Shown here: positions 6,568-58,029 of the stretch, in pieces | Layout: every line of letters starts with the position of its first letter | Numbering within the stretch: the first letter of the stretch is position 1 | Sequence record: OP557969.1 | Origin: Escherichia phage ph0011 | Length of the DNA stretch: 64,000 nt | Strand: one strand, 5' to 3' | The notes under the pieces: generated by a model | What the model was told of the DNA's origin: nothing | What the model saw: the letters and a program-made list of their open reading frames with translations, nothing else | Database searches by the model: none | Program-made: the position numbers and the translations under genes

Positions 6568-6945
6568 ATGGAAATGAAATATAAAGATTTTCATATAGGG
6601 ACATGGATGTACACTGGTGAGTTTATTACGTGCTGTAATTTATACAAGCGTGATTTAAACTACTCAAGGGAGAAGGTTATAAAGTTCGCAGATTCACAAT
6701 TTTATTTTATGGAGTTAAGTACTGGAATTCGTGTTAAATCAACCGTTATGCTGGATTATACAGTTCTGGATGAGGCACAATTATTTCAGGAGTCATTAGT
6801 ATTTGATAAGAAGTACAACTGTACATTAGAAGAGATAGTTGAAATCCAGCGTAGGATCAAATTTATTCACAAGGATTGTATCGATAAATGGTGTAAAACT
6901 GGTGAAACTAATTTTAGTAATTATTTCAATCTAGGGGAAGAGTGA
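6568..6945 (+). CDS. FamA paralog, short FDKKY subclass
   Basis: ATG after GAGGGGA (track 6520..); CCNL.K.D; core DEAQLFQESLVFDKKY. Confidence 0.8.
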   Translation: MEMKYKDFHIGTWMYTGEFITCCNLYKRDLNYSREKVIKFADSQFYFMELSTGIRVKSTVMLDYTVLDEAQLFQESLVFDKKYNCTLEEIVEIQRRIKFIHKDCIDKWCKTGETNFSNYFNLGEE

Positions 6946-7301
6946 TGGAATTTGATTTTGTAATATCAGTACATTCTTTCAAGAATAGTTTTCAGTACTT
7001 TTGTAATTTAAACAAAGGTGATTTAATGCACAGTGCAAATGAGTATATTCATTACACTGCTGGTAAATTTACATTTATTGATTACGATTCATTACAGTAT
7101 CCACATCAGGATATGCCGGACTTTACATTAATGGATGAGGCCGAACTATTCCAAGCTGCATTAGTATTCGATAAGAAGTACTTGTGTACACTAGAAGAAG
7201 TAATTGCCATACAAAATGAAATAAAAGAGTATGCTGCTTTGAATAAATCCAATGTAAGTATTAATCAAGAATACAAATTCAATATAGGAATTACAGAATG
7301 A
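6945..7301 (+). CDS. FamA paralog, short FDKKY subclass
   Basis: TGATG overlap; core DEAELFQAALVFDKKYLCTLEEV. Confidence 0.8.
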   Translation: MEFDFVISVHSFKNSFQYFCNLNKGDLMHSANEYIHYTAGKFTFIDYDSLQYPHQDMPDFTLMDEAELFQAALVFDKKYLCTLEEVIAIQNEIKEYAALNKSNVSINQEYKFNIGITE

Positions 7302-7663
7302 CATTTGATTATTCGATATACGTTTGCAAGTCCAGAACGGGGTGGGATTTGTGCTGTAATCTTGTCAAGGGTGACTCGGAACATGAGTTGAGTTTATATA
7401 TTCAGTACTCGGATTTGTGTTTTAATTTTATTGATGTATTGTATGATGACTTCGACTATAACTCTGAAAGTATTACAGATTATACAGTACTGGATGATGC
7501 TGAACTATTTCAAGCTTCTTTGGTGTTTGACAAGAATAAGTACTCATGTACAATAGAAGATATGATTTTTATACAAAATGAAATGAAGAGATATGTCAAA
7601 GAAAACACCTTTGATACATCTACACCAACAACAAGTAATTATTATTTCAATACAGGTGAGTAA
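7298..7663 (+). CDS. FamA paralog, short FDKKY subclass
   Basis: ATGA overlap; core DDAELFQASLVFDKNKY. Confidence 0.8.
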   Translation: MTFDYSIYVCKSRTGWDLCCNLVKGDSEHELSLYIQYSDLCFNFIDVLYDDFDYNSESITDYTVLDDAELFQASLVFDKNKYSCTIEDMIFIQNEMKRYVKENTFDTSTPTTSNYYFNTGE

Positions 7664-7664
7664 T

Positions 7665-8006
7665 ATGGAATATGATTTTTCTATTTATATGCCTATAATT
7701 AGTTCACAAGATGTGTATTGTAATCTTAATAAAGGTGATTACGAACACAAAATGGATCAGTACATTAAATTTAATGGTGCGTACTTTAGCTTCATTGATT
7801 ATCAGGCCAAAGGATCAGTTGTAGAAAATATGAAAGACTATACAACAGTACATGGTGAGGCTGAAATATTTCAAGAGTCATTAATATTCGACAAGAAGTA
7901 CTTGTGTACTCTAGAGGAAGTAATTGAACTCCAACAGAAGATGAAAGAATATAGAAGAATCTACACAGAGACTGGTTCCAAAGATAGGTATCGTTTTAAG
8001 CTATGA
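7665..8006 (+). CDS. FamA paralog, short FDKKY subclass
   Basis: ATG after AGGTGAG (track 7593..); core GEAEIFQESLIFDKKYLCTLEEV. Confidence 0.8.
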   Translation: MEYDFSIYMPIISSQDVYCNLNKGDYEHKMDQYIKFNGAYFSFIDYQAKGSVVENMKDYTTVHGEAEIFQESLIFDKKYLCTLEEVIELQQKMKEYRRIYTETGSKDRYRFKL

Positions 8007-8189: not shown

Positions 8190-8660
8190 ATGAGTTTTGA
8201 AAGAGCATTAGAAATTGCTAAGTTAATTGATGTATGTAAAAAAGAAATAGTGCTCAACAGACTCAATGGGTATCTATTCAAGGAAGGTAAATCTTATTGC
8301 CGAATGATATACGATGACAGTAGTGAATATATTCACATGTATGAAGAAAATCTTGATGAATCTGAAACAACACTCACTGGGTGTGATGTTAATCTGGAAG
8401 ATAATTACATGTACTTCTGTCGTGATGCTGATATTTTAATACAAGAAACATCATATCAAACTGGGAATCCAGAGGTATATCTTCCATATTCAGTACTGGA
8501 TAATGACTGGGGAAGTGAAGAGTTCTACTTCCAGCAGAATACTATCTACGATGAAGATGTACTTGACAAGCTTGTCATTCTGTGGTACTTTAAGAACACT
8601 GATACTCCTAACTTCTATATAGATTTGGATCTACTAAGAGTTATTAATGAGGATATATGA
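8190..8660 (+). CDS. FamA paralog, ~150-aa SALE/WYFK subclass
   Basis: N-term MSFERALEIAKLI; core SEEFYFQQNTIYDEDVLD; WYFK. Confidence 0.8.
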   Translation: MSFERALEIAKLIDVCKKEIVLNRLNGYLFKEGKSYCRMIYDDSSEYIHMYEENLDESETTLTGCDVNLEDNYMYFCRDADILIQETSYQTGNPEVYLPYSVLDNDWGSEEFYFQQNTIYDEDVLDKLVILWYFKNTDTPNFYIDLDLLRVINEDI

Positions 8661-9097
8661 GTTTAGTAAGTGCACTTGAACTGGCACACAAAATACACAA
8701 CTTCCATGATAAAATAAAAAGTGGGTTTTATGGTGATAACGTAAGTGAATTTGGTAATGAGTATTATCTATCAAGTTCAAATACATACGCTGATGATATT
8801 TTACTTATGGGTCATGATAAAGACAATACTATACAGTACTCTTCATGTAGTCAATATGCTAGTTTTATGGTATATATTCCAGGAACTAAGATTACTTTTG
8901 ACACATCAAATACACCTGTTGACTTCGGGGTACTTGATGGTCCATGGGGTACTGAAGAGTATTACTTCCAACAGAGTCTTATTTTTAGCCAAGAGATGCT
9001 TGATACCTTGGTTGTGTTGTGGTACTTTAAAGAATTGAATTTTGAACCATTCTTTCTTGACTGGGGAGCATGTGAGTATTTAAGTTCAGGAGAATAA
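8657..9097 (+). CDS. FamA paralog, ~150-aa SALE/WYFK subclass
   Basis: ATGA overlap; MSLVSALELAHKI; TEEYYFQQSLIFSQEMLD; WYFK. Confidence 0.8.
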   Translation: MSLVSALELAHKIHNFHDKIKSGFYGDNVSEFGNEYYLSSSNTYADDILLMGHDKDNTIQYSSCSQYASFMVYIPGTKITFDTSNTPVDFGVLDGPWGTEEYYFQQSLIFSQEMLDTLVVLWYFKELNFEPFFLDWGACEYLSSGE

Positions 9098-9099
9098 TA

Positions 9100-9567
9100 A
9101 TGTCATTGCGAAGTGCATTGAAAGAAGCAAAGAAGATCCATAATTACATGATTATGGTACAAGAAGGTTCCGTGCCTGGTGTATATAAAACATCTGATAC
9201 TGAATTTTTCGTAAAAGATCGAGATGATTATGATGAGTCAGAGATATGTGCAGAAACGTTAGTACTGCACATTGATACGGATGATACTGATGACTGTGAA
9301 TATCAGATGCACAATCAATACCTTAGTTATTATAGGGATGAAGATATTATAATTTACACTCCTGATTACGATGATGATAACATAATCATTCCGTATTCAG
9401 TTCTGGAAGGTCCATGGGATAGTGAAGAATATTATTTCCAGCAAAGTACTGTGTATAATGAAGATGTTTTAGATGTTATTGTAATTATGTGGTACTTTAA
9501 AAGTATTGATTCTGACAGTTTCTATTTCGATTATGAATACGTAGAGAATACTGTAGGGGGAAGATAA
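9100..9567 (+). CDS. FamA paralog, ~150-aa SALE/WYFK subclass
   Basis: MSLRSALKEAKKI; SEEYYFQQSTVYNEDVLD; WYFKSID. Confidence 0.8.
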   Translation: MSLRSALKEAKKIHNYMIMVQEGSVPGVYKTSDTEFFVKDRDDYDESEICAETLVLHIDTDDTDDCEYQMHNQYLSYYRDEDIIIYTPDYDDDNIIIPYSVLEGPWDSEEYYFQQSTVYNEDVLDVIVIMWYFKSIDSDSFYFDYEYVENTVGGR

Positions 9568-10010
9568 TGTCATTACAAAGTGCTCTTGAAAAAGCAAAAG
9601 AACTTCATGCATATATTGAAGATATTAAGGCTGGGAAGTTCGAAGAAATATACAAAGCCGAGAATGGTAACTACTACAAGGATAGTGATTTTGCTACAAC
9701 TACAGTTATTCTTGGGTTGAATTCCAAAAGTCCAGTAGACTTTTCTCAATACAATCCAGATGCAGAATTTATTAGTTATGCTTATGGTGGCGAAATCCGT
9801 TTTTATAATCGCAGCAGACCTTTAAAATTGAACTTTGAAGTACTGAAAGGTCCGTGGGATAGTGAAGAGTACTACTTCCAGAATAGAACTTTGTATGATG
9901 ATGAAGTTCTAGATACTTTAGTTATTATGTGGTACTTTAAAAGTATTGATAGTACAAGATTTTATTTGGATTATGAATATGTACGTGAAGTTTATAAGGG
10001 TAAACGATGA
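9567..10010 (+). CDS. FamA paralog, ~150-aa SALE/WYFK subclass
   Basis: TAATG overlap; MSLQSALEKAKEL; SEEYYFQNRTLYDDEVLD; WYFKSID. Confidence 0.8.
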   Translation: MSLQSALEKAKELHAYIEDIKAGKFEEIYKAENGNYYKDSDFATTTVILGLNSKSPVDFSQYNPDAEFISYAYGGEIRFYNRSRPLKLNFEVLKGPWDSEEYYFQNRTLYDDEVLDTLVIMWYFKSIDSTRFYLDYEYVREVYKGKR

Positions 10011-13246: not shown

Positions 13247-13606
13247 ATGAATACCATTAGTATTACGTACTACACAACTAAAAAATACGTTTGTTGTTTA
13301 CTTTCTTTGAAGACTAATGATGATATGTTCAATAATGTGGCATATACATTAGAATTGTCAGAAGATGGTTTTCAATGTCATGAAGCATACTCAAATACAC
13401 GTGAAGATACAATTGATACTACGCTCATGCAAGAGGATGAATTATTTCAAGAAAGTTTAGTATGGGATAAAAAGTACTATTGTGATTTTGATTTTCTATG
13501 TTTAATCCAGAAAGAAATGAAAAGGATCTTCGACAATTATCCAGTGAAGAGATTAAGTTCTGGACCAGAGCAGTACAGGAGGATGATATTCCGATATGAA
13601 GACTAG
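13247..13606 (+). CDS. FamA paralog, short subclass
   Basis: core QEDELFQESLVWDKKYY. Confidence 0.75.
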   Translation: MNTISITYYTTKKYVCCLLSLKTNDDMFNNVAYTLELSEDGFQCHEAYSNTREDTIDTTLMQEDELFQESLVWDKKYYCDFDFLCLIQKEMKRIFDNYPVKRLSSGPEQYRRMIFRYED

Positions 13607-13931
13607 ATTAGTAAAAGTAATGTATGCTACACATATTAAACTACTTCTTGTGAAATTTGATTATAATAAAAAACACAATGAGTTTTATACTTTAATTCGT
13701 AATGAAGAATCATTTTCATTGAGATGTAATAATATACCAATGAAAATAAACGATTACACCACATTAGATGAGGGAGAACTATTCCAAGAATCATTAGTTA
13801 TTGATAGTAATATAAAAATAGATATAGAAATTATTAAGCAGTACCAGACGTTATTAAACAAAATTATGAATTGTTATCCCTGTAGAATAGAAGGTAATAT
13901 GCAATTTAAATCGAAAATGTACGAGTTGTGA
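13596..13931 (+). CDS. FamA paralog, short subclass
   Basis: core DEGELFQESLVIDS. Confidence 0.75.
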   Translation: MKTRLVKVMYATHIKLLLVKFDYNKKHNEFYTLIRNEESFSLRCNNIPMKINDYTTLDEGELFQESLVIDSNIKIDIEIIKQYQTLLNKIMNCYPCRIEGNMQFKSKMYEL

Positions 13932-28310: not shown

Positions 28311-29159
28311 ATGAAACTTTATCTAATCGTTGACTACAGTAAGGGTTATTATGACTACGCAGAAGAATCTGAAGGGTATTGCTCGTCTACTAATGTCAAT
28401 GTACGCACCAGTAGTACACATGAGCATGAATCTATTACAAATCTAAAAGATTTTATTGCATATCGAGCATTTGAAAAGAATTTCTGTCGTAGTAGATATT
28501 CGAAGTTTGAGTACCCGTTAATTGATGTTCCTGATGAATTGATGTTCCAGTTAATGCTCACTGGAGTACAAGATTATGATTACATTGCGTACAATCACAT
28601 TACTAAGAAAATTTATATCGGTACGTCAACGCATGACATTTCTATGTATGCATCATGCCCCGATGATCGAATGAATGATAGAAAATCATACTATAGTGGT
28701 TCAGTTGGTTCAAATGTTCCATCAAATAAAAATTTATTCTTTGAGTACGAGTTTGATAATCATCGAGGGAAAACAGACCGAGAAGATTATTGTACTGAAA
28801 TTAATAGTTCAAATGGATATGAAGAAGTGAAAGAAGCAATAATGCCATATATCCTAGACAAGTACTACAAAGATTTTCAGTACTGTAGTAATTTTCTAAT
28901 CCGAAATTCTATCAAAATCGGTCGTCAAAGCACTGCATTCTCTAAGTACTACAATGATTCCCCTGTTGCTGAAAATGAATACTGTAATGTTCTCTCAATC
29001 CCACGTGAAGATATGGTATTCATGTTCACATCTTTCATTGAAGATGATGAGTTGTATGTAAAAAACAAGCACAGGTTCATGCTAAGTAATATTGAGGTTA
29101 TGAGAAGCTTAAGTGCAGATATATTAACGAATTTCACTGAAAAAACAGAATACAACTGA
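28311..29159 (+). CDS. hypothetical protein with two FamA-like cores
   Basis: 282 aa, TGGAG RBS; PDELMFQLMLTGVQD (aa ~85) and PREDMVFMFTSFIEDD (aa ~235). Confidence 0.65.
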   Translation: MKLYLIVDYSKGYYDYAEESEGYCSSTNVNVRTSSTHEHESITNLKDFIAYRAFEKNFCRSRYSKFEYPLIDVPDELMFQLMLTGVQDYDYIAYNHITKKIYIGTSTHDISMYASCPDDRMNDRKSYYSGSVGSNVPSNKNLFFEYEFDNHRGKTDREDYCTEINSSNGYEEVKEAIMPYILDKYYKDFQYCSNFLIRNSIKIGRQSTAFSKYYNDSPVAENEYCNVLSIPREDMVFMFTSFIEDDELYVKNKHRFMLSNIEVMRSLSADILTNFTEKTEYN

Positions 29160-29185
29160 GACATACCATAAGTTTATGATATAAT
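29157..29185 (+). promoter_or_regulatory. early-type sigma70 promoter (GATATAAT class)
   Basis: TGAGAC - 17 nt - TATAAT; same -35 as the 44595 promoter; overlaps the stop of 28311..29159. Confidence 0.55.
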
Positions 29186-29189
29186 ATAA

Positions 29190-29220
29190 GGTGACAGCAG
29201 AATATGTTGTCACCTTTTTT
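29190..29220 (+). terminator. Rho-independent terminator
   Basis: ggtgacagca-gaata-tgttgtcacc (10 bp, one G-U) then tttttt. Confidence 0.8.
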
Positions 29221-29840
29221 AATCCTGAAAGGTTCCTTTAAAGGAAACGTTTAAAACCTAATCCACTCGAAAATGTAGAGGGTAGATGAGTAGTCCTTTC
29301 AGTACGAACAGCAGATGAAACCCGTTAGATGATGGCATAGTTTGAACCACTCACGGCAATGCGGCTGTATAAAGAACTCCAATAGGATAAAGAGAGTTCC
29401 TCGATAGACATATAAGGATCGCACCTTACCAATTATCTAAGGGAGATTTCATGAGAAATATGCGGTCGGAATTATACAATATAGTTGCGTCCAAATTTTG
29501 TGAAATCAAATACAAGTACTGGTCATATGGTATTTGTATTATGTGTTGGGATGTTTAAGACCAACGACCGTTGCTACAAGAACCGCGATAGAGAGAAACC
29601 GAGCAACCCGCTTTCGTCTCGTATGAGAATTCGTGATATGAACTATGTGAAGACCACCAGCGTCAAATTTTTTTGTTCTTTCCCCTGCGGGGGGATGAAA
29701 TATGCTCAAACAAACCTCGTCAATATTAATTAAAAGAATTATTATTACTTGTAGAATTTGACATGCGTAGCATGGATAATTCTACTGGTGTTGATGTAAT
29801 CAACATCACGTATATATTCATTGAAGTTTCCACAGGAATA
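29221..29840 (+). ncRNA. candidate structured non-coding RNA (unclassified)
   Basis: ~620 nt without a credible ORF; three 60-nt lines counted at 43-48% GC vs ~33% around; nested complementary segments; promoter at 29157. Confidence 0.35.
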
Positions 29841-30386
29841 ATGATGGCATTTATTAAAAAACAAAAAACATTTACCTATAAGACTTTGGATTTTATTGAT
29901 TGCGAAAATCAAACACAGAATGAAGATAACTTTACTGGATTTGTTGTTATTAAAGAAAAAGGATGTATTTCGTATATCAAGGAATTACAAAATGGAATTG
30001 AAGTAACGTCGGTTAAATTACTTCCTACACAAAAGCCAACAATATCCAAAGCACAATATGGTAATTATTTTGAGGAAAGATATAGTAATAATTTAATAAG
30101 TGTTAAGGCTCATATTATAAAAGGAGAACTAGAAGGAGAATATAGAAAATTCAATCCACAAGGAAAATGTGTTTGGGTTAAATACTTCAATTCAGGAAAT
30201 GATGTAACATCTGAAATAATTGAGTTTTTAGGTTTAACATGTACCCCTGAAACTCTTCATGACTACAAATTTAATGCTGAAGAAGAGTTTAATCTGATGA
30301 TGCGTTATGGAACACATTTTAAATTTTTATATGAATATAACATTGACAGTGGTGTTTTTGATAGGATAGTACAAAACTGTCTTTAA
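29841..30386 (+). CDS. hypothetical protein (possible MORN/YwqK-like repeats)
   Basis: ATG after AGGA (track 29763..); GELEGEYRKFNPQGKCVWVKYFNSGND repeat-like segment. Confidence 0.5.
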   Translation: MMAFIKKQKTFTYKTLDFIDCENQTQNEDNFTGFVVIKEKGCISYIKELQNGIEVTSVKLLPTQKPTISKAQYGNYFEERYSNNLISVKAHIIKGELEGEYRKFNPQGKCVWVKYFNSGNDVTSEIIEFLGLTCTPETLHDYKFNAEEEFNLMMRYGTHFKFLYEYNIDSGVFDRIVQNCL

Positions 30387-43192: not shown

Positions 43193-43452
43193 TGGATAAA
43201 TTTCATACAGATATAACACAGATAGGTAACCTTATCAATAGTCTAATTACTGATTTAGAAGAAAAGTACTTAGGGCGAAATGTATACGTAGAAATGTATG
43301 AAACATATGGTGTTATTGATATGATTTATTATAGTGCATTGAAATATGAAATACGTTTAACTGTATGTTTATATGAAAAAGGTACATTTAAAAGAAGTTC
43401 TGCAATCCGTCAAGTCGGAGTTGACGACATTGAATTATACGAGGAACAATGA
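43192..43452 (+). CDS. small hypothetical protein, FamD
   Basis: ..IGNLINSLITDLEEKYLGRNVYVEMYE.. Confidence 0.6.
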   Translation: MDKFHTDITQIGNLINSLITDLEEKYLGRNVYVEMYETYGVIDMIYYSALKYEIRLTVCLYEKGTFKRSSAIRQVGVDDIELYEEQ

Positions 43453-43703
43453 TGTTTGAGCAGGACTTAGAGCTATTCAAAAGTTATATTGAGTACTTAG
43501 TTACTTTAGAAAAAGAGCTAACTGCAAAGTACAAGGGTGTTCGTGTTCAGTGCTGGTATGACGATTGTGATTATAAACGTGAACTTATTATTGACCGAAT
43601 ATATTTCATCGATGGTGTATTGAATGTACATGGTGTTAATGATTTTGGACATTCATATACTTATTCAAATAATGCAAAATTCAAGAGGATTGACAATGAA
43701 TGA
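43449..43703 (+). CDS. small hypothetical protein, FamD
   Basis: ATGA overlap; ..YIEYLVTLEKELTAKYKGVRVQCWYDD.. Confidence 0.6.
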   Translation: MMFEQDLELFKSYIEYLVTLEKELTAKYKGVRVQCWYDDCDYKRELIIDRIYFIDGVLNVHGVNDFGHSYTYSNNAKFKRIDNE

Positions 43704-43998
43704 GTATTATCAAAATTTATTCAAATACATAAAACTAATAGATGATCTTGCTTTTGATTTTCTTAGTACTGATAAAGTTGATGAGCCTTTATATTATGAT
43801 TGTATTGGTTCACTTTGTTCATATGAAAAAGAAATATTAGAAAACAATTTACCATCAACGCTCTGTATTATCAATGGTTCTAAAGCGGTGGTGGTAGATG
43901 TTAATTTTTATAAATCACTTAATACAATTGTTTACAAGTTTGATAACACTGGGTTTAATCATATAACAGGTAATATTAAATCTGTGAGGTTCTTATGA
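43696..43998 (+). CDS. small hypothetical protein, FamD-like
   Basis: ATG after AGAGGA (track 43624..); MNEYYQNLFKYIKLIDDLAFDF. Confidence 0.55.
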   Translation: MNEYYQNLFKYIKLIDDLAFDFLSTDKVDEPLYYDCIGSLCSYEKEILENNLPSTLCIINGSKAVVVDVNFYKSLNTIVYKFDNTGFNHITGNIKSVRFL

Positions 43999-45552: not shown

Positions 45553-45885
45553 ATGAAACATCTTGTACAATATAATCAGTACTTGATTTCATTACACAAA
45601 ATGAAAGATGATTTCTTTAGAAGTGCTGAGATTGAACTCGTTGGTAAGATAGTAAAATTTACTGACGAGTATATCAAAAGATACACTGACATAGATGATG
45701 ACCCAGAGTATGAATCATACTACCAGTACATAAATCAATATACTAGAATGCGAATTGTTGGAATTTTAAAATTCGGTATACGATTAGTTGCACATGTGGA
45801 ATTCATCAATTACGAAGCAATTGATGCAGCAGCCTTTGGGGATGAAATTAGTTTAGATCATCTTATACTAGTTGATGAGGAATAA
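45553..45885 (+). CDS. small hypothetical protein, FamD
   Basis: ..YLISLHKMKDDFFRSAEIELVGKIVKFTDE.. Confidence 0.6.
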   Translation: MKHLVQYNQYLISLHKMKDDFFRSAEIELVGKIVKFTDEYIKRYTDIDDDPEYESYYQYINQYTRMRIVGILKFGIRLVAHVEFINYEAIDAAAFGDEISLDHLILVDEE

Positions 45886-55356: not shown

Positions 55357-58029
55357 TTAAGCACTGATTGTTACAGTTGCAGTATCTTTTTTATTACCAT
55401 CCACTGTAGTCACTGTAATGATTACAGAACCTTCTTCTAGAGCAGTTACTAATCCATCATCACTAATAGATACTTTAGTAGGTTTATCTGCACTATAAGT
55501 TACTGATTTGTTAGTTGCTTTAGCTGGTAGAACTTCTGGAACTAGTTGAACTGTTTTAGTTCCTGATAGTGAAAGTTCAGTAGTTTTAGGTGTTAAACTA
55601 ACACTGGATACTGGAACTGGAATATTAACGATTACTGATGTTTGACCAGTAACATCACTACCATCAGCGGCAGTAGCGATAATATTTGCAGTACCATTAG
55701 TTAGTGCAGTTACGATACCAGTATTAGCATCTACTTTAGCAATTTCTGGAGCACTGGATGACCAAATTACATTTTTATTGGTTGCATCACTTGGGGTAAT
55801 TGCAGCAGCCATTTGTTTAGTTGCATTCAATGTAGTCAAAGTTTGATCTTTAGGAGTTACATCAATTGCAGTTACTGGCACTGGAATATTAACAGTAATA
55901 ACACCTTGACCTGTTTTACCACTTCCATCAGCAGCAGTTGCGATAATGTTTGCAGAACCGTTAGTTAACGCAGTTACAACACCAGTACTAGCATCTACTT
56001 TCGCTACAGCAGGTTTACTGGAAGACCATGTTACAGATTTATTTGTTGCGTTAGTTGGAAGAACTTCAGCAGCCATTGCTTGAGTTGCGTTAACAGCAGT
56101 CAATGTTTTAGTTGCTGGAGTAACATTAATAGATGCGACTGGAACTGGAATTGCTACAGTTACCGCACATTTTGCAGTTTTTGCTCCATCAGCAGTTGTT
56201 ACTGTGATATCAGCAGTGCCATTTGCTACAGCAGTGATTAAACCAGTTGGACTAACAGTTGCCACTCCATCAGCAGAAGTACTATAAGTTACTGCTTTGT
56301 TGGTAGCATTAGGTGGTAGTACAGTTGGTGTTAGTTGTTGAGTATCACCGACTGAAGTTAATTTAGCACTTGTTGGAGATACTGATACACTTGCAACAGG
56401 AACTGGAATGTTAACAGTTACCACGCAAACTTTAGAAAATCCACCATCAGATGTGGTTGCTGTAATATTTGCAGTACCGTTTGCAACAGCAGTGATTAAA
56501 CCAGTTGGACTTACCGTTGCGACACCCTCAGCAGAAGTAGTGTATGAAATATCTTTACGACGAGCGTTATCTGGAATAACAGATGCAGTTAGTTGTTGAG
56601 TAGCACCTACAGAAGTTAGGGTTGCTGTCAACGGAGTCATATTAATTCCAGTTACTGGGATCGTTACATCAATCACTGATTCAGCAGTTTTAGCACCATC
56701 ATCAGTGGTAACAGTAATAGTTGTAGTACCGTTATCAACCGAAGTTACTAGACCAGTATTACTAACTTTTGCTACGTCTGGATATGAAGAAACATATGAA
56801 ACTGCTTTATTGGATGCAGTTGCAGGAGCAACGGTTGTTTCTAATTGTTTAGTATCACCTAATGTTGAGAATGTATAAGTACTAGGAGTCATTGTGACAC
56901 CAGATACTGGTGTTTTCACTGTGATTGTAGTAGTGTCCGTTTTAGCACCATCTTCGGTTGTAGCTGTAATCACCACTGTGCCGTTAGCCACACCAGTTAC
57001 TAGACCAGAAGTAGGGTTAACAGTTGCTATATCAGGTGTTGCTGAAGACCACGTGACGTTTTTATTAGTTGCATCATCAGGAGATATTGTAGCAGTTAAT
57101 TGTTGAGTACTGCCAACGTTAATTGATGCAGTTTTAGGAGAAACAACAACACCACTAACTGGAGTTGTTACAGTAACAGTACATTTTGAAACAAATGAAC
57201 CATCAACTGTAGTTGCAATTACATCAGTACTGCCATCTGCAATACCAGTTACCATACCAGTTGGACTTACAGTTGCGAAGCGTGGTATACTGGATGACCA
57301 AATAACACTTTTATCACTTGCATCATCGGGTGATACGGTAGCTGTTAGTTGATGAGTTTTACCAACACCAAGAGATAGAGTTGAAGGAGAAACAACAACA
57401 CCACTAACTGGAGTTGTTACAGTAAATGCACAAACATCGGTGAAACCACCATCATGAGTAGTAACTGTTACATTTGCATTACCATTAGCACGGGCAATTG
57501 CTAAACCAGTTTGAGCATCAACTTCAACTATTGTTGGAGCAGAGGAACTATAACTTACTGTTGGATCATTTGCATAATCTGGATTAATTGTAGCTGATAG
57601 TTGTTGTGTGCTACCAACTTTAAGTGCTACTACTTTGGGTGAAATAATAACACCATTAACTGGTGTAGTATAATCACGTTTAACCACACGACCATTGTTC
57701 AATTTAATAATACGACCCATATAAAGAGTAGCATATCCCTTACTAATCCCATCATCTACATAAATCATAAATGAATTGTCTTGAACCATATTAATTGCGT
57801 CTACTGGCTTAACAGTATTTGGAATGTCGATACCACGGGTATCATACCAACACATGGAAACTTTGTAATATATATCACCATTATCATTGATGAGATCATA
57901 CACGTTACTGGAACGTTGACGGTTAATATATAAAGTTTCGGTTAATACCTTACCATCGATTTTAGCGACAGAAACTTTAATACCACCAATACCAAATGGC
58001 AATTTACCTTCACTAGATATTGCTTTCAT
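55357..58029 (-). CDS. Ig-like (Big_2) repeat virion-surface/adhesin-type protein
   Basis: 890 aa; ~121-aa N-domain then 9 repeats starting (T/I)PV..V..P....L..G.TQQL..; AAAGGAAAG RBS; only minus-strand gene. Confidence 0.8.
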   Translation of the reverse strand: MKAISSEGKLPFGIGGIKVSVAKIDGKVLTETLYINRQRSSNVYDLINDNGDIYYKVSMCWYDTRGIDIPNTVKPVDAINMVQDNSFMIYVDDGISKGYATLYMGRIIKLNNGRVVKRDYTTPVNGVIISPKVVALKVGSTQQLSATINPDYANDPTVSYSSSAPTIVEVDAQTGLAIARANGNANVTVTTHDGGFTDVCAFTVTTPVSGVVVSPSTLSLGVGKTHQLTATVSPDDASDKSVIWSSSIPRFATVSPTGMVTGIADGSTDVIATTVDGSFVSKCTVTVTTPVSGVVVSPKTASINVGSTQQLTATISPDDATNKNVTWSSATPDIATVNPTSGLVTGVANGTVVITATTEDGAKTDTTTITVKTPVSGVTMTPSTYTFSTLGDTKQLETTVAPATASNKAVSYVSSYPDVAKVSNTGLVTSVDNGTTTITVTTDDGAKTAESVIDVTIPVTGINMTPLTATLTSVGATQQLTASVIPDNARRKDISYTTSAEGVATVSPTGLITAVANGTANITATTSDGGFSKVCVVTVNIPVPVASVSVSPTSAKLTSVGDTQQLTPTVLPPNATNKAVTYSTSADGVATVSPTGLITAVANGTADITVTTADGAKTAKCAVTVAIPVPVASINVTPATKTLTAVNATQAMAAEVLPTNATNKSVTWSSSKPAVAKVDASTGVVTALTNGSANIIATAADGSGKTGQGVITVNIPVPVTAIDVTPKDQTLTTLNATKQMAAAITPSDATNKNVIWSSSAPEIAKVDANTGIVTALTNGTANIIATAADGSDVTGQTSVIVNIPVPVSSVSLTPKTTELSLSGTKTVQLVPEVLPAKATNKSVTYSADKPTKVSISDDGLVTALEEGSVIITVTTVDGNKKDTATVTISA
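55360..57666 (-). repeat. 9 tandem ~255-270-bp coding repeats (Big_2 domains)
   Basis: Adjacent units near-identical at DNA level, e.g. 56210-56280 vs 56470-56540 (..cagcagtgattaaaccagttggac..). Confidence 0.75.

Follow-up and report, generated by a model that had tools for sequence, protein, structure and literature searches.

RNAs that are both large and intricately folded are rare in bacteria and phages, and new biology has repeatedly come from the known examples ROOL, GOLLD, OLE, raiA, and HEARO. Most known large ornate RNAs live in organisms that are hard to handle. ROOL and GOLLD belong to Firmicutes and to rumen and lake lineages, and they often adjoin tRNA genes in phages and prophages. 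ColE1 RNA II, a transcript of ~550 nt made by the host polymerase from a strong promoter, has a fate decided by its folding and, along with the T4 origins oriF and oriG, is a model for origin priming, and known antitermination RNAs are about 70 to 120 nt long. By cryo-EM, ROOL, GOLLD, and OLE are RNA-only homo-oligomeric assemblies (PMC12286853). OLE is encoded on the chromosomes of extremophilic Bacillota, next to the genes of the OLE-associated proteins with which it functions (PMC12054373). In phage PA5oct, RNA-seq revealed four regions termed "putative lncRNA" (ncRNA001 to ncRNA004) that are ORF free, promoter driven, and 236 to 619 nt long, with two of the four accounting for 1.2 to 5% of phage reads (PMC7318152).

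The locus compared here with these systems lies in a 64-kb stretch of phage DNA, referred to as a whole as the window. A preliminary description of the window, made from the sequence, had proposed an ORF-free, GC-elevated island encoding a large structured RNA with its own promoter.

Limits and transcription signals of the locus

An ORF scan of the gap at 29160-29840 detected only short overlapping ORFs on both strands, none of which is conserved, and no conserved ORF was found over 29158-29810. GC content, calculated over 200 nt at a time, was 0.375 to 0.43 across 29200-29799 relative to 0.265 to 0.36 in the flanks, a modest but real rise. The island proposed earlier therefore stands; the extent given to the RNA was too small, as the RNA fills the whole gap. 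An intact protein gene here in relatives, which the preliminary description had named as the sign of a decayed gene, was looked for and not found. The start that it had assigned to the next gene, ATG 29841, is also annotated in phage G17, and AGGA lies 5 nt upstream. This segment (29835-29843) is outside the RNA and marks its downstream limit. The longer annotation of 121Q gp416 starts at the equivalent of 29763, which would place its first part on the conserved 3' domain of the RNA; it is probably too long. On the other side of the gap, the upstream ORF has its own stop codon at 29159. The features below draw on an alignment of 47 nonredundant copies (A1) and on a wider profile and scan of 65 copies.

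29158-29185 (+), promoter: -35-like GAGACA at 29158-29163, 16-nt spacer, TG at 29177-29178, and -10 TATAAT at 29180-29185 (promoter scan)
29188-29216 (+), hairpin and U-run, terminator of the upstream gene (terminator scan; G17 terminator at the equivalent place)
29192-29810 (+), predicted extent of the whole structured RNA, ~620 nt (both ends from the conservation profile and covariation)
29225-29232 (+), leader strand of pseudoknot PK2, CTGAAAGG, pairing with CCTTTCAG at 29295-29302 (covariation, 8 bp)
29233-29246 (+), small leader hairpin TTCC...GGAA (read from alignments)
29263-29282 (+), hairpin S1, 29263-29268 with 29278-29282, conserved GAAAAYGUA loop (5 of 5 pairs covary)
29290-29305 (+), hairpin S2, 29290-29292 with 29303-29305; its loop, 29295-29302, is the 3' strand of PK2 (covariation)
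29308-29368 (+), domain closed by S3, 29308-29312 with 29364-29368 (100% paired, 4 of 5 pairs covary)
29374-29399 (+), hairpin S5, gaactc with gagttc (6 of 6 pairs covary, up to 4 pair types each)
29413-29428 (+), hairpin S6, UAAGG at 29413-29417 with CCUUA at 29424-29428 (88% paired, 3 of 3 pairs covary)
29437-29445 (+), near-invariant unpaired block CUAAGGGAG, part of the feature at 29413-29445 (A1)
29445-29507 (+), variable peripheral domain V1, base stem 29445-29449 with 29503-29507 (base stem covaries)
29522-29642 (+), core 3' domain closed by S7, 29522-29528 with 29636-29642 (covariation)
29544-29549 with 29561-29566 (+), S8, within the core 3' domain
29570-29574 with 29603-29607 (+), pseudoknot PK1, within the core 3' domain (covariation)
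29584-29588 with 29631-29635 (+), S9, within the core 3' domain
29591-29595 with 29611-29615 (+), S10, within the core 3' domain
29618-29620 with 29625-29627 (+), S11, within the core 3' domain
29653-29674 (+), conserved block CCACCAGCGUCAA at 29653-29665 and U-run at 29668-29674 (terminator mapping, A1)
29676-29699 (+), hairpin S12, UUCUUUCCCC-UGCG-GGGGGAUGAA, closed as C(UGCG)G (99% paired)
29711-29723 (+), conserved unpaired block CAAACCUCGUCAA (profile 0.89, among the most conserved segments)
29751-29808 (+), 3' domain, stem GUAGAAUU at 29751-29758 with AAUUCUAC at 29778-29785 (read from alignments)
29835-29843 (+), start of the next gene, a homologue of 121Q gp416: ribosome-binding site AGGA at 29835-29838 and ATG at 29841 (sequence; G17 start)

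The extended -10 promoter is conserved in the aligned copies, in agreement with the earlier proposal that the RNA has its own promoter, and conservation is high across 29153-29190 in the profile of 65 copies. Aligned jumbo-phage copies share the upstream layout (T/G)(G/A)(G/A)ACA, 13 to 15 nt, and TGnTATAAT. This promoter class has nine sites in the window, a related genome has 29, and every one of them is on the coding strand; the class matches the "TGAAACG -35" promoter class described for phage CBB (PMC5259590). The upstream terminator, previously placed at 29190-29220, was located by our scan essentially where expected. In the window copy, this hairpin comes after the -10 element, so that the RNA, which we infer to start near 29192, would have it at its 5' end as well; in the other copies examined, the terminator precedes the promoter. 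The arrangement in the window speaks against an RNA gene, considering that a terminator directly after the -10 element could curtail transcription from the promoter.

Conservation among the 65 copies is high from 29153 to ~29735 and again at 29753-29782 and 29813-29827, and it is at background past ~29830. A terminator-like hairpin with a U-run occurs in 34 of the 65 copies, with the second CGUCA block following 49 to 58 nt later, and in one paralogue group the stem of this internal terminator shares sequence with the conserved CGUCAG block. In the window copy, the U-run is present and the internal hairpin is missing. About 150 nt past the internal terminator are conserved, which a simple model of a terminated small RNA leaves unexplained. 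Transcription may end at the internal hairpin and U-run (in about half of the copies) or past the 3' hairpin domain. In the window copy and many jumbo-phage copies, the RNA is physically also a 5' leader because no terminator separates it from the next codirectional gene, and in the window the ribosome-binding site of that gene starts ~25 nt past the last hairpin. We regard 29158-29810 (+) as a predicted transcription unit composed of promoter, leader, ~480-nt core, and 3' hairpin domain.

Folding and covariation of the RNA family

Across A1, 61 pairs in 13 helices, including one pseudoknot, had 97.8% of cells paired, relative to 77.5% in shuffles and 39 to 45% with partners slid. Compensatory changes on both sides were observed at 45 of the 61 pairs, with 554 both-sided-change cells relative to 141 in shuffles and at most 72 with partners slid, and the covariation score was 0.589 relative to 0.06 to 0.12 with partners slid. 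RNAalifold predicted 64 pairs, 42 of them with compensatory changes, and 87 columns are invariant across the 47 copies. The family has at least 13 covarying helices and two pseudoknots. Covariation, for which the preliminary description had suggested a check, was found in these pairing tests, and the large structured RNA that it proposed proved to be a conserved, multicopy family with very strong covariation. Because G-U pairs are frequent and correspond to A-C mismatches on the opposite strand, the folded strand is the plus strand. Thermodynamic stability was similar on both strands (z = -2.7 on the plus strand and -3.0 on the minus strand) and therefore cannot tell them apart.

The individual pairings proposed earlier fared differently. 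The segments gttgct and agcaac pair and covary as PK1, and gaactc with gagttc (29374-29378 with 29395-29399) was recovered as S5. The hairpin tcccc-tgcg-gggga (S12) is conserved, with changes that are one-sided only, from C-G to U-G (G-C to G-U). Pairing of cggtcg at 29463 with cgaccg at 29565 was unsupported; by eye, 29464-29471 pairs locally with 29485-29492.

In the 5' half of the RNA, PK2 joins the leader to a hairpin loop. Both-sided changes were present at 7 of its 8 pairs, 86 to 92.6% of cells were paired relative to 26 to 43% when slid, and the pairing scan of 65 copies also recovered it. The small leader hairpin varies in sequence between copies at a constant position. S1 lies between two conserved blocks, CCUGAU and CAGAUGAG, and the middle pair of S2 is UA in 24 copies, AU in 14, and CG in 9, with zero unpaired cells. 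The S3 domain contains S4 (CCGU at 29322-29325 with ACGG at 29353-29356), which is nearly invariant, along with an inner hairpin that varies and two conserved blocks, AGAUGAAACCCGUUAG and CACGGCAAUGCGGC. AAGGGA is invariant in 47 of 47 copies. V1 is absent or shorter in many paralogues, and its variable inner hairpin (29464-29471 with 29485-29492) is perfect in one paralogue, L007, as judged by eye in A1.

In the core 3' domain, S7, PK1, S9, and S10 are 99.7 to 100% paired, with 3 to 6 covarying pairs in each; pair types in PK1 include UA 23/CG 22/AU 1/GC 1 and GC 42/AU 4. Helices with covariation support span 29225 to 29642. The block at 29711-29723 is a near-repeat of 29653-29665, and pairing scans of the alignments found no covarying partner for it. 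The stem of the 3' domain encloses a hairpin, CAUGC-GUA-GCAUG (29762-29774), and the terminator scan placed a terminal hairpin at 29786-29808. Equivalent modules in other copies, GAAUU...AAUUC and GACAUUCG-AA-GAAUGGC, appear by eye to be conserved with compensatory variation; RNAalifold did not recover the 3' domain modules. A helix joining the 5' and 3' ends, tried with CCUGAU or GAUGAG and the two CGUCA blocks, was not adopted; these candidates are invariant or mismatched and thus yield no covariation either way.

Copies, genomic context, and possible function

The RNA matched 61 phage records, with 4 to 5 places per record. Asteriusvirus genomes contain four copies, other Rak2-like jumbo phages contain five, and RaK2 contains at least one; carriers are phages of E. 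coli, Salmonella, Klebsiella, Erwinia, Serratia, and Yersinia, among them 121Q, PBECO4, phAPEC6, G17, and RaK2. In an nhmmer search of IMG/VR, full-length copies were found only in contigs of jumbo-phage size, with the RaK2 copy in addition. Jumbo-phage copies are dispersed in the same orientation as surrounding genes, as in a close relative with four co-oriented copies at about 18, 128, 208, and 262 kb, and the paralogues form orthologous groups that are kept separate across phage genera. The 64-kb window contains no second copy, and the only other match in it is a 38-nt stretch at 45566-45602.

Full-length copies also occur in some enterobacterial prophages or islands, found in a few E. coli, Citrobacter, and Serratia. 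There, one promoter-plus-RNA module is flanked by an integrase gene and a convergent CI repressor gene. After clustering ORFs within 3.5 kb of 89 loci, we found no recurrent partner protein; integrase and CI repressor or paralogue-specific phage genes were the only recurrent neighbors, and the neighboring genes of different paralogues are unalike. At least 23 loci have a convergent gene downstream of the RNA, which encodes the CI repressor at 13 loci and a baseplate protein at 10. By tblastn, proteins flanking the prophage copies had no homologue in one jumbo genome, indicating that the RNA module is the only element common to the prophages and this jumbo phage.

This context favors an abundant trans-acting RNA over a cis-acting leader, an origin primer, or a decayed gene. 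With moderate confidence, we propose that the locus is an independent gene for a ~620-nt structured ncRNA, most likely trans acting and abundant; scaffold or decoy is the most likely class of mechanism, chosen by exclusion. The convergent CI repressor and baseplate genes, the variable neighbors, and the lack of a shared flanking protein suggest a stand-alone, trans-acting RNA, and the 4 to 5 copies behind strong promoters, along with retention of paralogues across genera, imply a large demand for it. Host σ70 RNA polymerase would transcribe the RNA from the conserved extended -10 promoter, which would place its synthesis early in lytic infection, and prophage copies would probably be transcribed during lysogeny as well. 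Once folded, the RNA most likely works in trans and in quantity, either providing a scaffold or titrating some factor of host or phage as a decoy or sponge, and control of the adjoining gene by the RNA is improbable.

It is possible, although rather unlikely, that the RNA is instead a 5' untranslated region controlling the downstream operon, either by antitermination in the manner of HK022 put RNA, which modifies the polymerase transcribing it, or by attenuation, with the internal hairpin and U-run as its site and the large fold as a sensor. The window copy occupies an operon-start position, in which it directly follows its promoter and the preceding unit's terminator and has no terminator before the next ribosome-binding site, and the fixed internal position of the terminator-like hairpin, whose stem in one group overlaps the CGUCAG block as in riboswitch expression platforms, would suit such a leader. 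GC-skew magnitude was also larger downstream than upstream for four of four copies in a related genome. However, the convergent loci lack this operon-start position, so nothing codirectional is left to control; the downstream genes of different paralogues are unrelated; the internal hairpin is missing from about half of the copies, including that in the window; and, at ~620 nt with two pseudoknots, the RNA is unlike the much shorter known antitermination RNAs.

More doubtful than such a leader is the idea that the RNA is a horizontally mobile, protein-free counter-defense or exclusion RNA of virulent jumbo phages and temperate Enterobacterales phages. Bulk RNA from four or five strong early promoters, or from a prophage in lysogeny, would work stoichiometrically and might titrate a component of host defense, such as an immune signaling nucleotide or an RNA-binding effector; alternatively, cargo might be sequestered in a hetero-oligomeric RNA particle built from the paralogues.

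We consider it improbable that each copy is an origin at which the RNA forms a persistent R-loop and is processed to a leading-strand primer. The dispersal of 4 to 5 copies around a ~350-kb genome resembles the several origins of T4, and the RNA is promoter driven, similar in size to RNA II, and has a G-run/C-run hairpin and a U-run near its 3' end; RaK2 also encodes an RNase H (PMC3622015). Against an origin, cumulative GC skew, which is dominated by gene orientation in these genomes, turns at no copy and changes sign only where the gene strand switches; prophage copies are between int and cI, outside the replication module; and the conserved tertiary-type structure and invariant unpaired blocks exceed known needs of a primer.

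Still less credible is that the sequence works as DNA (a recombination or packaging site or a protein-binding array) or is a mobile-element remnant, with an incidental RNA fold. Although the element is a dispersed repeat that has moved between unrelated phages and islands, pairing is kept by compensatory changes as the sequence drifts, the many G-U pairs could not form as pairs on the opposite strand, where they read A-C, the promoter is conserved in the same orientation, and neither terminal inverted or direct repeats nor a transposase was seen beside the copies.

Finally, a decayed or unrecognized protein-coding gene, such as orf82 (29485-29733) or orf35 (29451-29558), can be practically dismissed: the orf82 frame is intact in ~96% identical orthologues and a few hypothetical proteins are annotated over the stretch in some records, but these are not conserved, most records (121Q and G17 included) annotate nothing here, 7 of 8 orf82 substitutions relative to relatives are at codon positions 1 and 2, the ATG of orf35 is lost in the closest relatives, and many indels between paralogues are not multiples of 3 and break the frame. 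Since that start codon is not conserved, UAAGGGAG was also rejected as a Shine-Dalgarno sequence of orf35.

Comparison with known RNA families

We searched the 4,227 models of Rfam 15, which include ROOL, GOLLD, OLE, HEARO, raiA, group I and II introns, RNase P, tmRNA, 6S, and riboswitches. At gathering scores, none matched the whole window or four element-bearing bacterial loci. When the threshold was relaxed to E values of up to 10 for 29000-30000 and for six small divergent loci, the matches were scattered and low scoring; no family recurred at one place, and some matches clustered on both strands at terminator-like hairpins. ARAGORN detected no tRNA or tmRNA genes in the 64-kb window, and thus no tRNA is near the element. 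The preliminary description, which could neither fold a tRNA cloverleaf nor assign the element to tRNAs, ROOL, or GOLLD, was correct on both counts. Full-text searches, genome papers of the Rak2 group, and a 2026 review of jumbo phages yielded no description of the element.

A group I intron was rejected, as the upstream ORF ends at its own stop codon and is followed by a terminator. Intron_gpI had no match over 29000-30000 even at E values up to 10, and by inspection we take the helix order around PK1 to be unlike group I P3/P7, as the strands have no P4-P6 domain between them. Likenesses to a hammerhead core (CUGAUGA...GAAA), box C/D or K-turn motifs, the TPP thi-box (ACCUGAUC), RNase P conserved regions, and the 11-nt tetraloop receptor had no model match and were taken as chance.

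The RNA exceeds 400 nt and has many covarying helices, pseudoknots, and conserved unpaired nucleotides, as do large ornate ncRNAs, which are an operational class and not a homology family. It looks like an apparently uncatalogued family and a new class of large ornate phage RNA. Several paralogues held apart across phage genera, two pseudoknots in one phage RNA, and a bare promoter-plus-RNA module transferred between unrelated phage types are all unusual. Because the carriers are cultivable enterobacterial phages, genetics, RNA-seq, pull-downs, and cryo-EM are directly feasible. The family also corrects annotation, both for the hypothetical proteins placed over the RNA in several database records and for 121Q gp416, for which a shorter product is probable.

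Among described systems, the ncRNA regions of PA5oct, a jumbo phage related to the Rak2-like phages, are like the window RNA in size, promoter, and lack of ORFs; for the two regions compared (ncRNA001 and ncRNA002), we detected no nhmmer match and no conserved block. HK022 put/EAR is likewise found directly after a promoter and ahead of codirectional, terminator-containing genes, but the window RNA is five to ten times larger and many of its copies are followed by a convergent gene. ColE1 RNA II is similar in size and also promoter driven; in contrast to RNA II, we detected no antisense RNA I-like partner, no similarity, and no origin signal in GC skew here, and prophage copies are outside replication modules. 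OLE is also about 600 nt, highly structured, and conserved, but the window RNA matches no OLE model and has no associated protein genes. ROOL and GOLLD share with the window RNA a size class of ~500 to 800 nt, many conserved helices, pseudoknots, invariant unpaired blocks, carriage by phages or prophages, and the absence of a conserved protein partner encoded nearby. Multimers have been seen for ROOL and GOLLD; the window RNA matches neither covariance model. Unlike those RNAs, this family is found in Enterobacterales hosts, its neighbors are integrase and CI repressor or assorted phage genes instead of tRNA genes, and it is present as 4 to 5 distinct paralogues per genome in jumbo phages and at a fixed int-RNA-cI position in prophages.

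Coding potential, promoter, and extent of the RNA

The window belongs to an Asteriusvirus (a Rak2-like jumbo phage of the PBECO4/121Q type), and megablast of 29100-29900 returned slurp01, PBECO4, and 121Q at 93 to 95% identity. The gap at 29157-29840, which carries no annotation between its two flanking genes in the 121Q and G17 records, had been described preliminarily as a GC-elevated, ORF-free island with its own promoter. We observed GC content of 0.375 to 0.43 across 29200-29799 versus 0.265 to 0.36 in the flanks (200-nt windows) and solely short, overlapping ORFs on both strands, in agreement with that description. The ATG of orf35 (29451-29558) is absent from the closest relatives, and of the eight substitutions in orf82 (29485-29733), seven affect the first or second codon position. 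Judged from these sequence comparisons, both ORFs are without coding constraint, and the same two observations rule out a coding gene.

The proposed promoter corresponds to a promoter-like site (GAGACA, 16 nt, and TATAAT with TG) of a class with the pattern (T/G)(G/A)(G/A)ACA, 13 to 15 nt, and TGnTATAAT. We counted 9 sites of this class in the window and 29 in a related genome, in every case on the coding strand, and it is probably a major class of host-polymerase promoters in these phages. A "TGAAACG -35" promoter class resembling the promoter of the element has been reported for CBB and GAP32 (PMC5259590).

Features of the locus and same-class promoters
29159: stop codon of the 121Q gp415 homologue, upstream neighbor of the gap
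29158-29185: promoter-like site of the element
29188-29216: hairpin of the upstream gene's terminator
29786-29808: terminal hairpin, 3' of the 3' domain
29841: ATG of the 121Q gp416 homologue, preceded by AGGA, downstream neighbor of the gap
4379, 27459, 36827, 40709, 44596, 46813, 52240, and 63519 (+): eight further same-class promoters, all on the coding strand

The terminator noted earlier near 29190-29220 is the hairpin at 29188-29216. In the window copy, it lies directly 3' of the -10 element of the RNA promoter (29180-29185), so that a transcript from this promoter would start inside or just before the hairpin. The other copies that we examined instead have the terminator 5' of the promoter. 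Conservation extends from the promoter (29153) through a core to ~29735, resumes at 29753-29782 (the 3' domain), and is at background beyond ~29830. This profile indicates that the RNA occupies the gap, with predicted ends at ~29192 and ~29810, the latter ~25 nt 5' of the AGGA and ATG of the next gene. A terminator-like hairpin with a U-run occupies a fixed internal position in 34 of 65 copies, for which the window copy has the U-run only (29668-29674), and a few copies have a terminator 3' of the 3' domain.

The 121Q gp416 gene (43357-43968 in our 121Q sequence) is annotated from an ATG equivalent to 29763, yielding a 203-aa protein that overlaps the conserved 3' domain, and its G17 equivalent starts at the position of 29841, 3' of AGGA. 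The shorter start is the more plausible of the two.

Folded structure and pseudoknots

For an alignment of 47 copies with <97% mutual identity, RNAalifold predicted 64 pairs, and compensatory double changes are seen at 42 of these. On this alignment we then tested an explicit 61-pair structure with 13 helices, one pseudoknot among them, against shuffled controls and against partners slid by 1 to 3 columns.

Support for the explicit structure (observed; shuffled; slid by 1 to 3 columns)
Cells paired: 97.8%; 77.5%; 39-45%
Cells changed on both sides: 554; 141; 31-72
Covariation score: 0.589; 0.202; 0.06-0.12

Changes on both sides occurred at 45 of the 61 pairs, which, together with the multicopy family and the conserved promoter, bears out the earlier proposal of a large structured RNA. 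The gttgct/agcaac complementarity noticed previously is the pseudoknot of this structure, and scanning a 65-copy alignment with wider flanks revealed a second.

Pseudoknots
PK1: 29570-29574 with 29603-29607
PK2 (+): leader 29225-29232 with 29295-29302, the loop of hairpin 29290-29305

A separate alignment confirmed PK2, with seven of its eight pairs covarying and 92.6% of cells paired overall, versus 26 to 43% when slid. The frequency of G-U pairs, along with conservation of the promoter, indicates that the folded molecule is the + strand; folding energy did not separate the + and - strands.

Distribution in jumbo phages, prophages, and islands

With sensitive BLAST, 29221-29762 matched 61 phage records, every one a Rak2-like jumbo phage, with hosts in Escherichia, Salmonella, Erwinia, Yersinia, Serratia, Klebsiella, Cronobacter, Pectobacterium, and "Xanthomonas." Identity to phages of other genera was ~70 to 75% over ~480 nt, and each record matched in 4 to 5 places, mostly unannotated. 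Scanning IMG/VR with the conserved blocks, followed by nhmmer, yielded 65 hits (~59 full length), all located in jumbo-phage-sized contigs or in pieces of these. Yen9-04, GAP32, CBB, and several genomes from metagenomes each have five copies; BF has at least five and 121Q has four. Paralogues cluster as orthologous groups across genera, mostly with one member per genome, indicating that the duplications are old and that the copies are maintained separately.

The close relative OR844650.1 (350,000 of 351,992 bases covered) has four copies at ~18, 128, 208, and 262 kb, each co-stranded with the surrounding genes and preceded by a TGnTATAAT element; aligned, they show strongly conserved blocks separated by indel-rich stretches. 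At all four (~18.5, 128.5, 208.3, and 261.7 kb), GC-skew magnitude was larger in the 10 kb downstream than in the 10 kb upstream (for example, -0.16 versus -0.10, with no sign change), perhaps because the sequence 3' of the RNA promoters is more heavily transcribed.

RaK2 (Alcyoneusvirus) carries a divergent full-length copy (E = 2e-41) directly 3' of a sigma-factor gene, overlapped by an annotated "hypothetical protein." Small hypothetical proteins are drawn over the RNA in GenBank for RaK2 (ORF245, 1533-1739 in our RaK2 sequence), BAU.Micro_ELP-22, E9.1, JP4, SHEFM2K, WPEC3/5, and SD-series Salmonella phages, and some such records show "hypothetical protein (x4-x7)" beneath the BLAST match. 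These calls are probably spurious.

The window itself contains a single copy. A 38-nt match (84% identity) of 45566-45602 (- strand) to 29495-29532 may be chance or a fragment. Direct-repeat families at 55492-57684 (spacings mostly ~250 to 264 nt and multiples; 60 to 79% identity) may correspond to domains repeated in tandem within one large gene, and families with spacings of ~360 nt and ~440 nt (6760-7952 and 13421-13806; 8492-9983) may represent small paralogous genes in arrays.

A three-block pattern also occurred in 78 metagenome and 10 bacterial-genome stretches, and nhmmer identified full-length copies (E = 1e-64 to 1e-96) in Citrobacter, Serratia, Silvania, Enterobacter, Buttiauxella, and unclassified Enterobacteriaceae. 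These copies lie at the edge of integrated elements, adjoining host genes, in a consistent order of integrase (a large serine or tyrosine recombinase), RNA, and convergent CI-type repressor. Among 5426 complete E. coli genomes, two contain the RNA, in neither case annotated; one of these copies, which we examined, is in an island at ffs and adjoins an integrase. The jumbo genome encodes no homologue of any protein flanking the bacterial copies, indicating that the promoter-plus-RNA module itself moves between phage types.

Departing from the usual layout, the RNA in a Serratia fonticola island (L175, 61-3439) adjoins genes for a large serine recombinase and, in tandem, two ParB/RepB-like proteins, and its strand is opposite to that of all three. 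A 2.8-kb contig of a "Clostridium sp." MAG (DPOH01000171.1, 996-1525) holds a copy that barely differs from the one in enterobacterial prophages and is probably mis-binned or a contaminant.

Possible function and relation to known RNAs

The element is an RNA gene that is conserved, pseudoknotted, and equipped with a promoter; it is maintained in multiple copies and can be transferred alone. Host sigma-70 polymerase would transcribe the RNA early, and the RNA may have two 3' ends. Because at least 23 loci have a convergent gene next to the RNA and neighbors are unrelated between paralogues, the RNA would likely act in trans; the same observations make a cis-acting leader, operating through antitermination or attenuation, unlikely. 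An origin primer is more doubtful still, as nothing in the GC skew, which gene orientation dominates in these genomes, points to a replication origin, and a DNA-level repeat is highly improbable. A decayed gene can practically be dismissed given the lack of coding constraint in orf35 and orf82. The copy number, the strength of the promoters, and the absence of a partner gene are consistent with a bulk-RNA role for this putative trans-acting RNA; by exclusion, it may serve as a scaffold, or else sequester some factor of the host or phage as a decoy or sponge.

The element is not a tRNA or tmRNA. With either gathering or permissive thresholds, it matched none of the Rfam 15 families, both in the window copy and in nine other loci containing it, and it belongs to no catalogued RNA family. 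Similarity to the PA5oct RNA-seq "lncRNAs" ncRNA001 and ncRNA002 was undetectable. The published literature searched, including the RaK2 and CBB genome papers and a 2026 jumbo-phage review, holds no description of the family. Like ROOL and GOLLD, the element is a large ornate RNA carried by phages, but it is distinguished by its Enterobacterales hosts, its 4 to 5 conserved paralogues per genome, and its position between int and cI in prophages. We regard it as a new RNA class within the large ornate phage RNAs.
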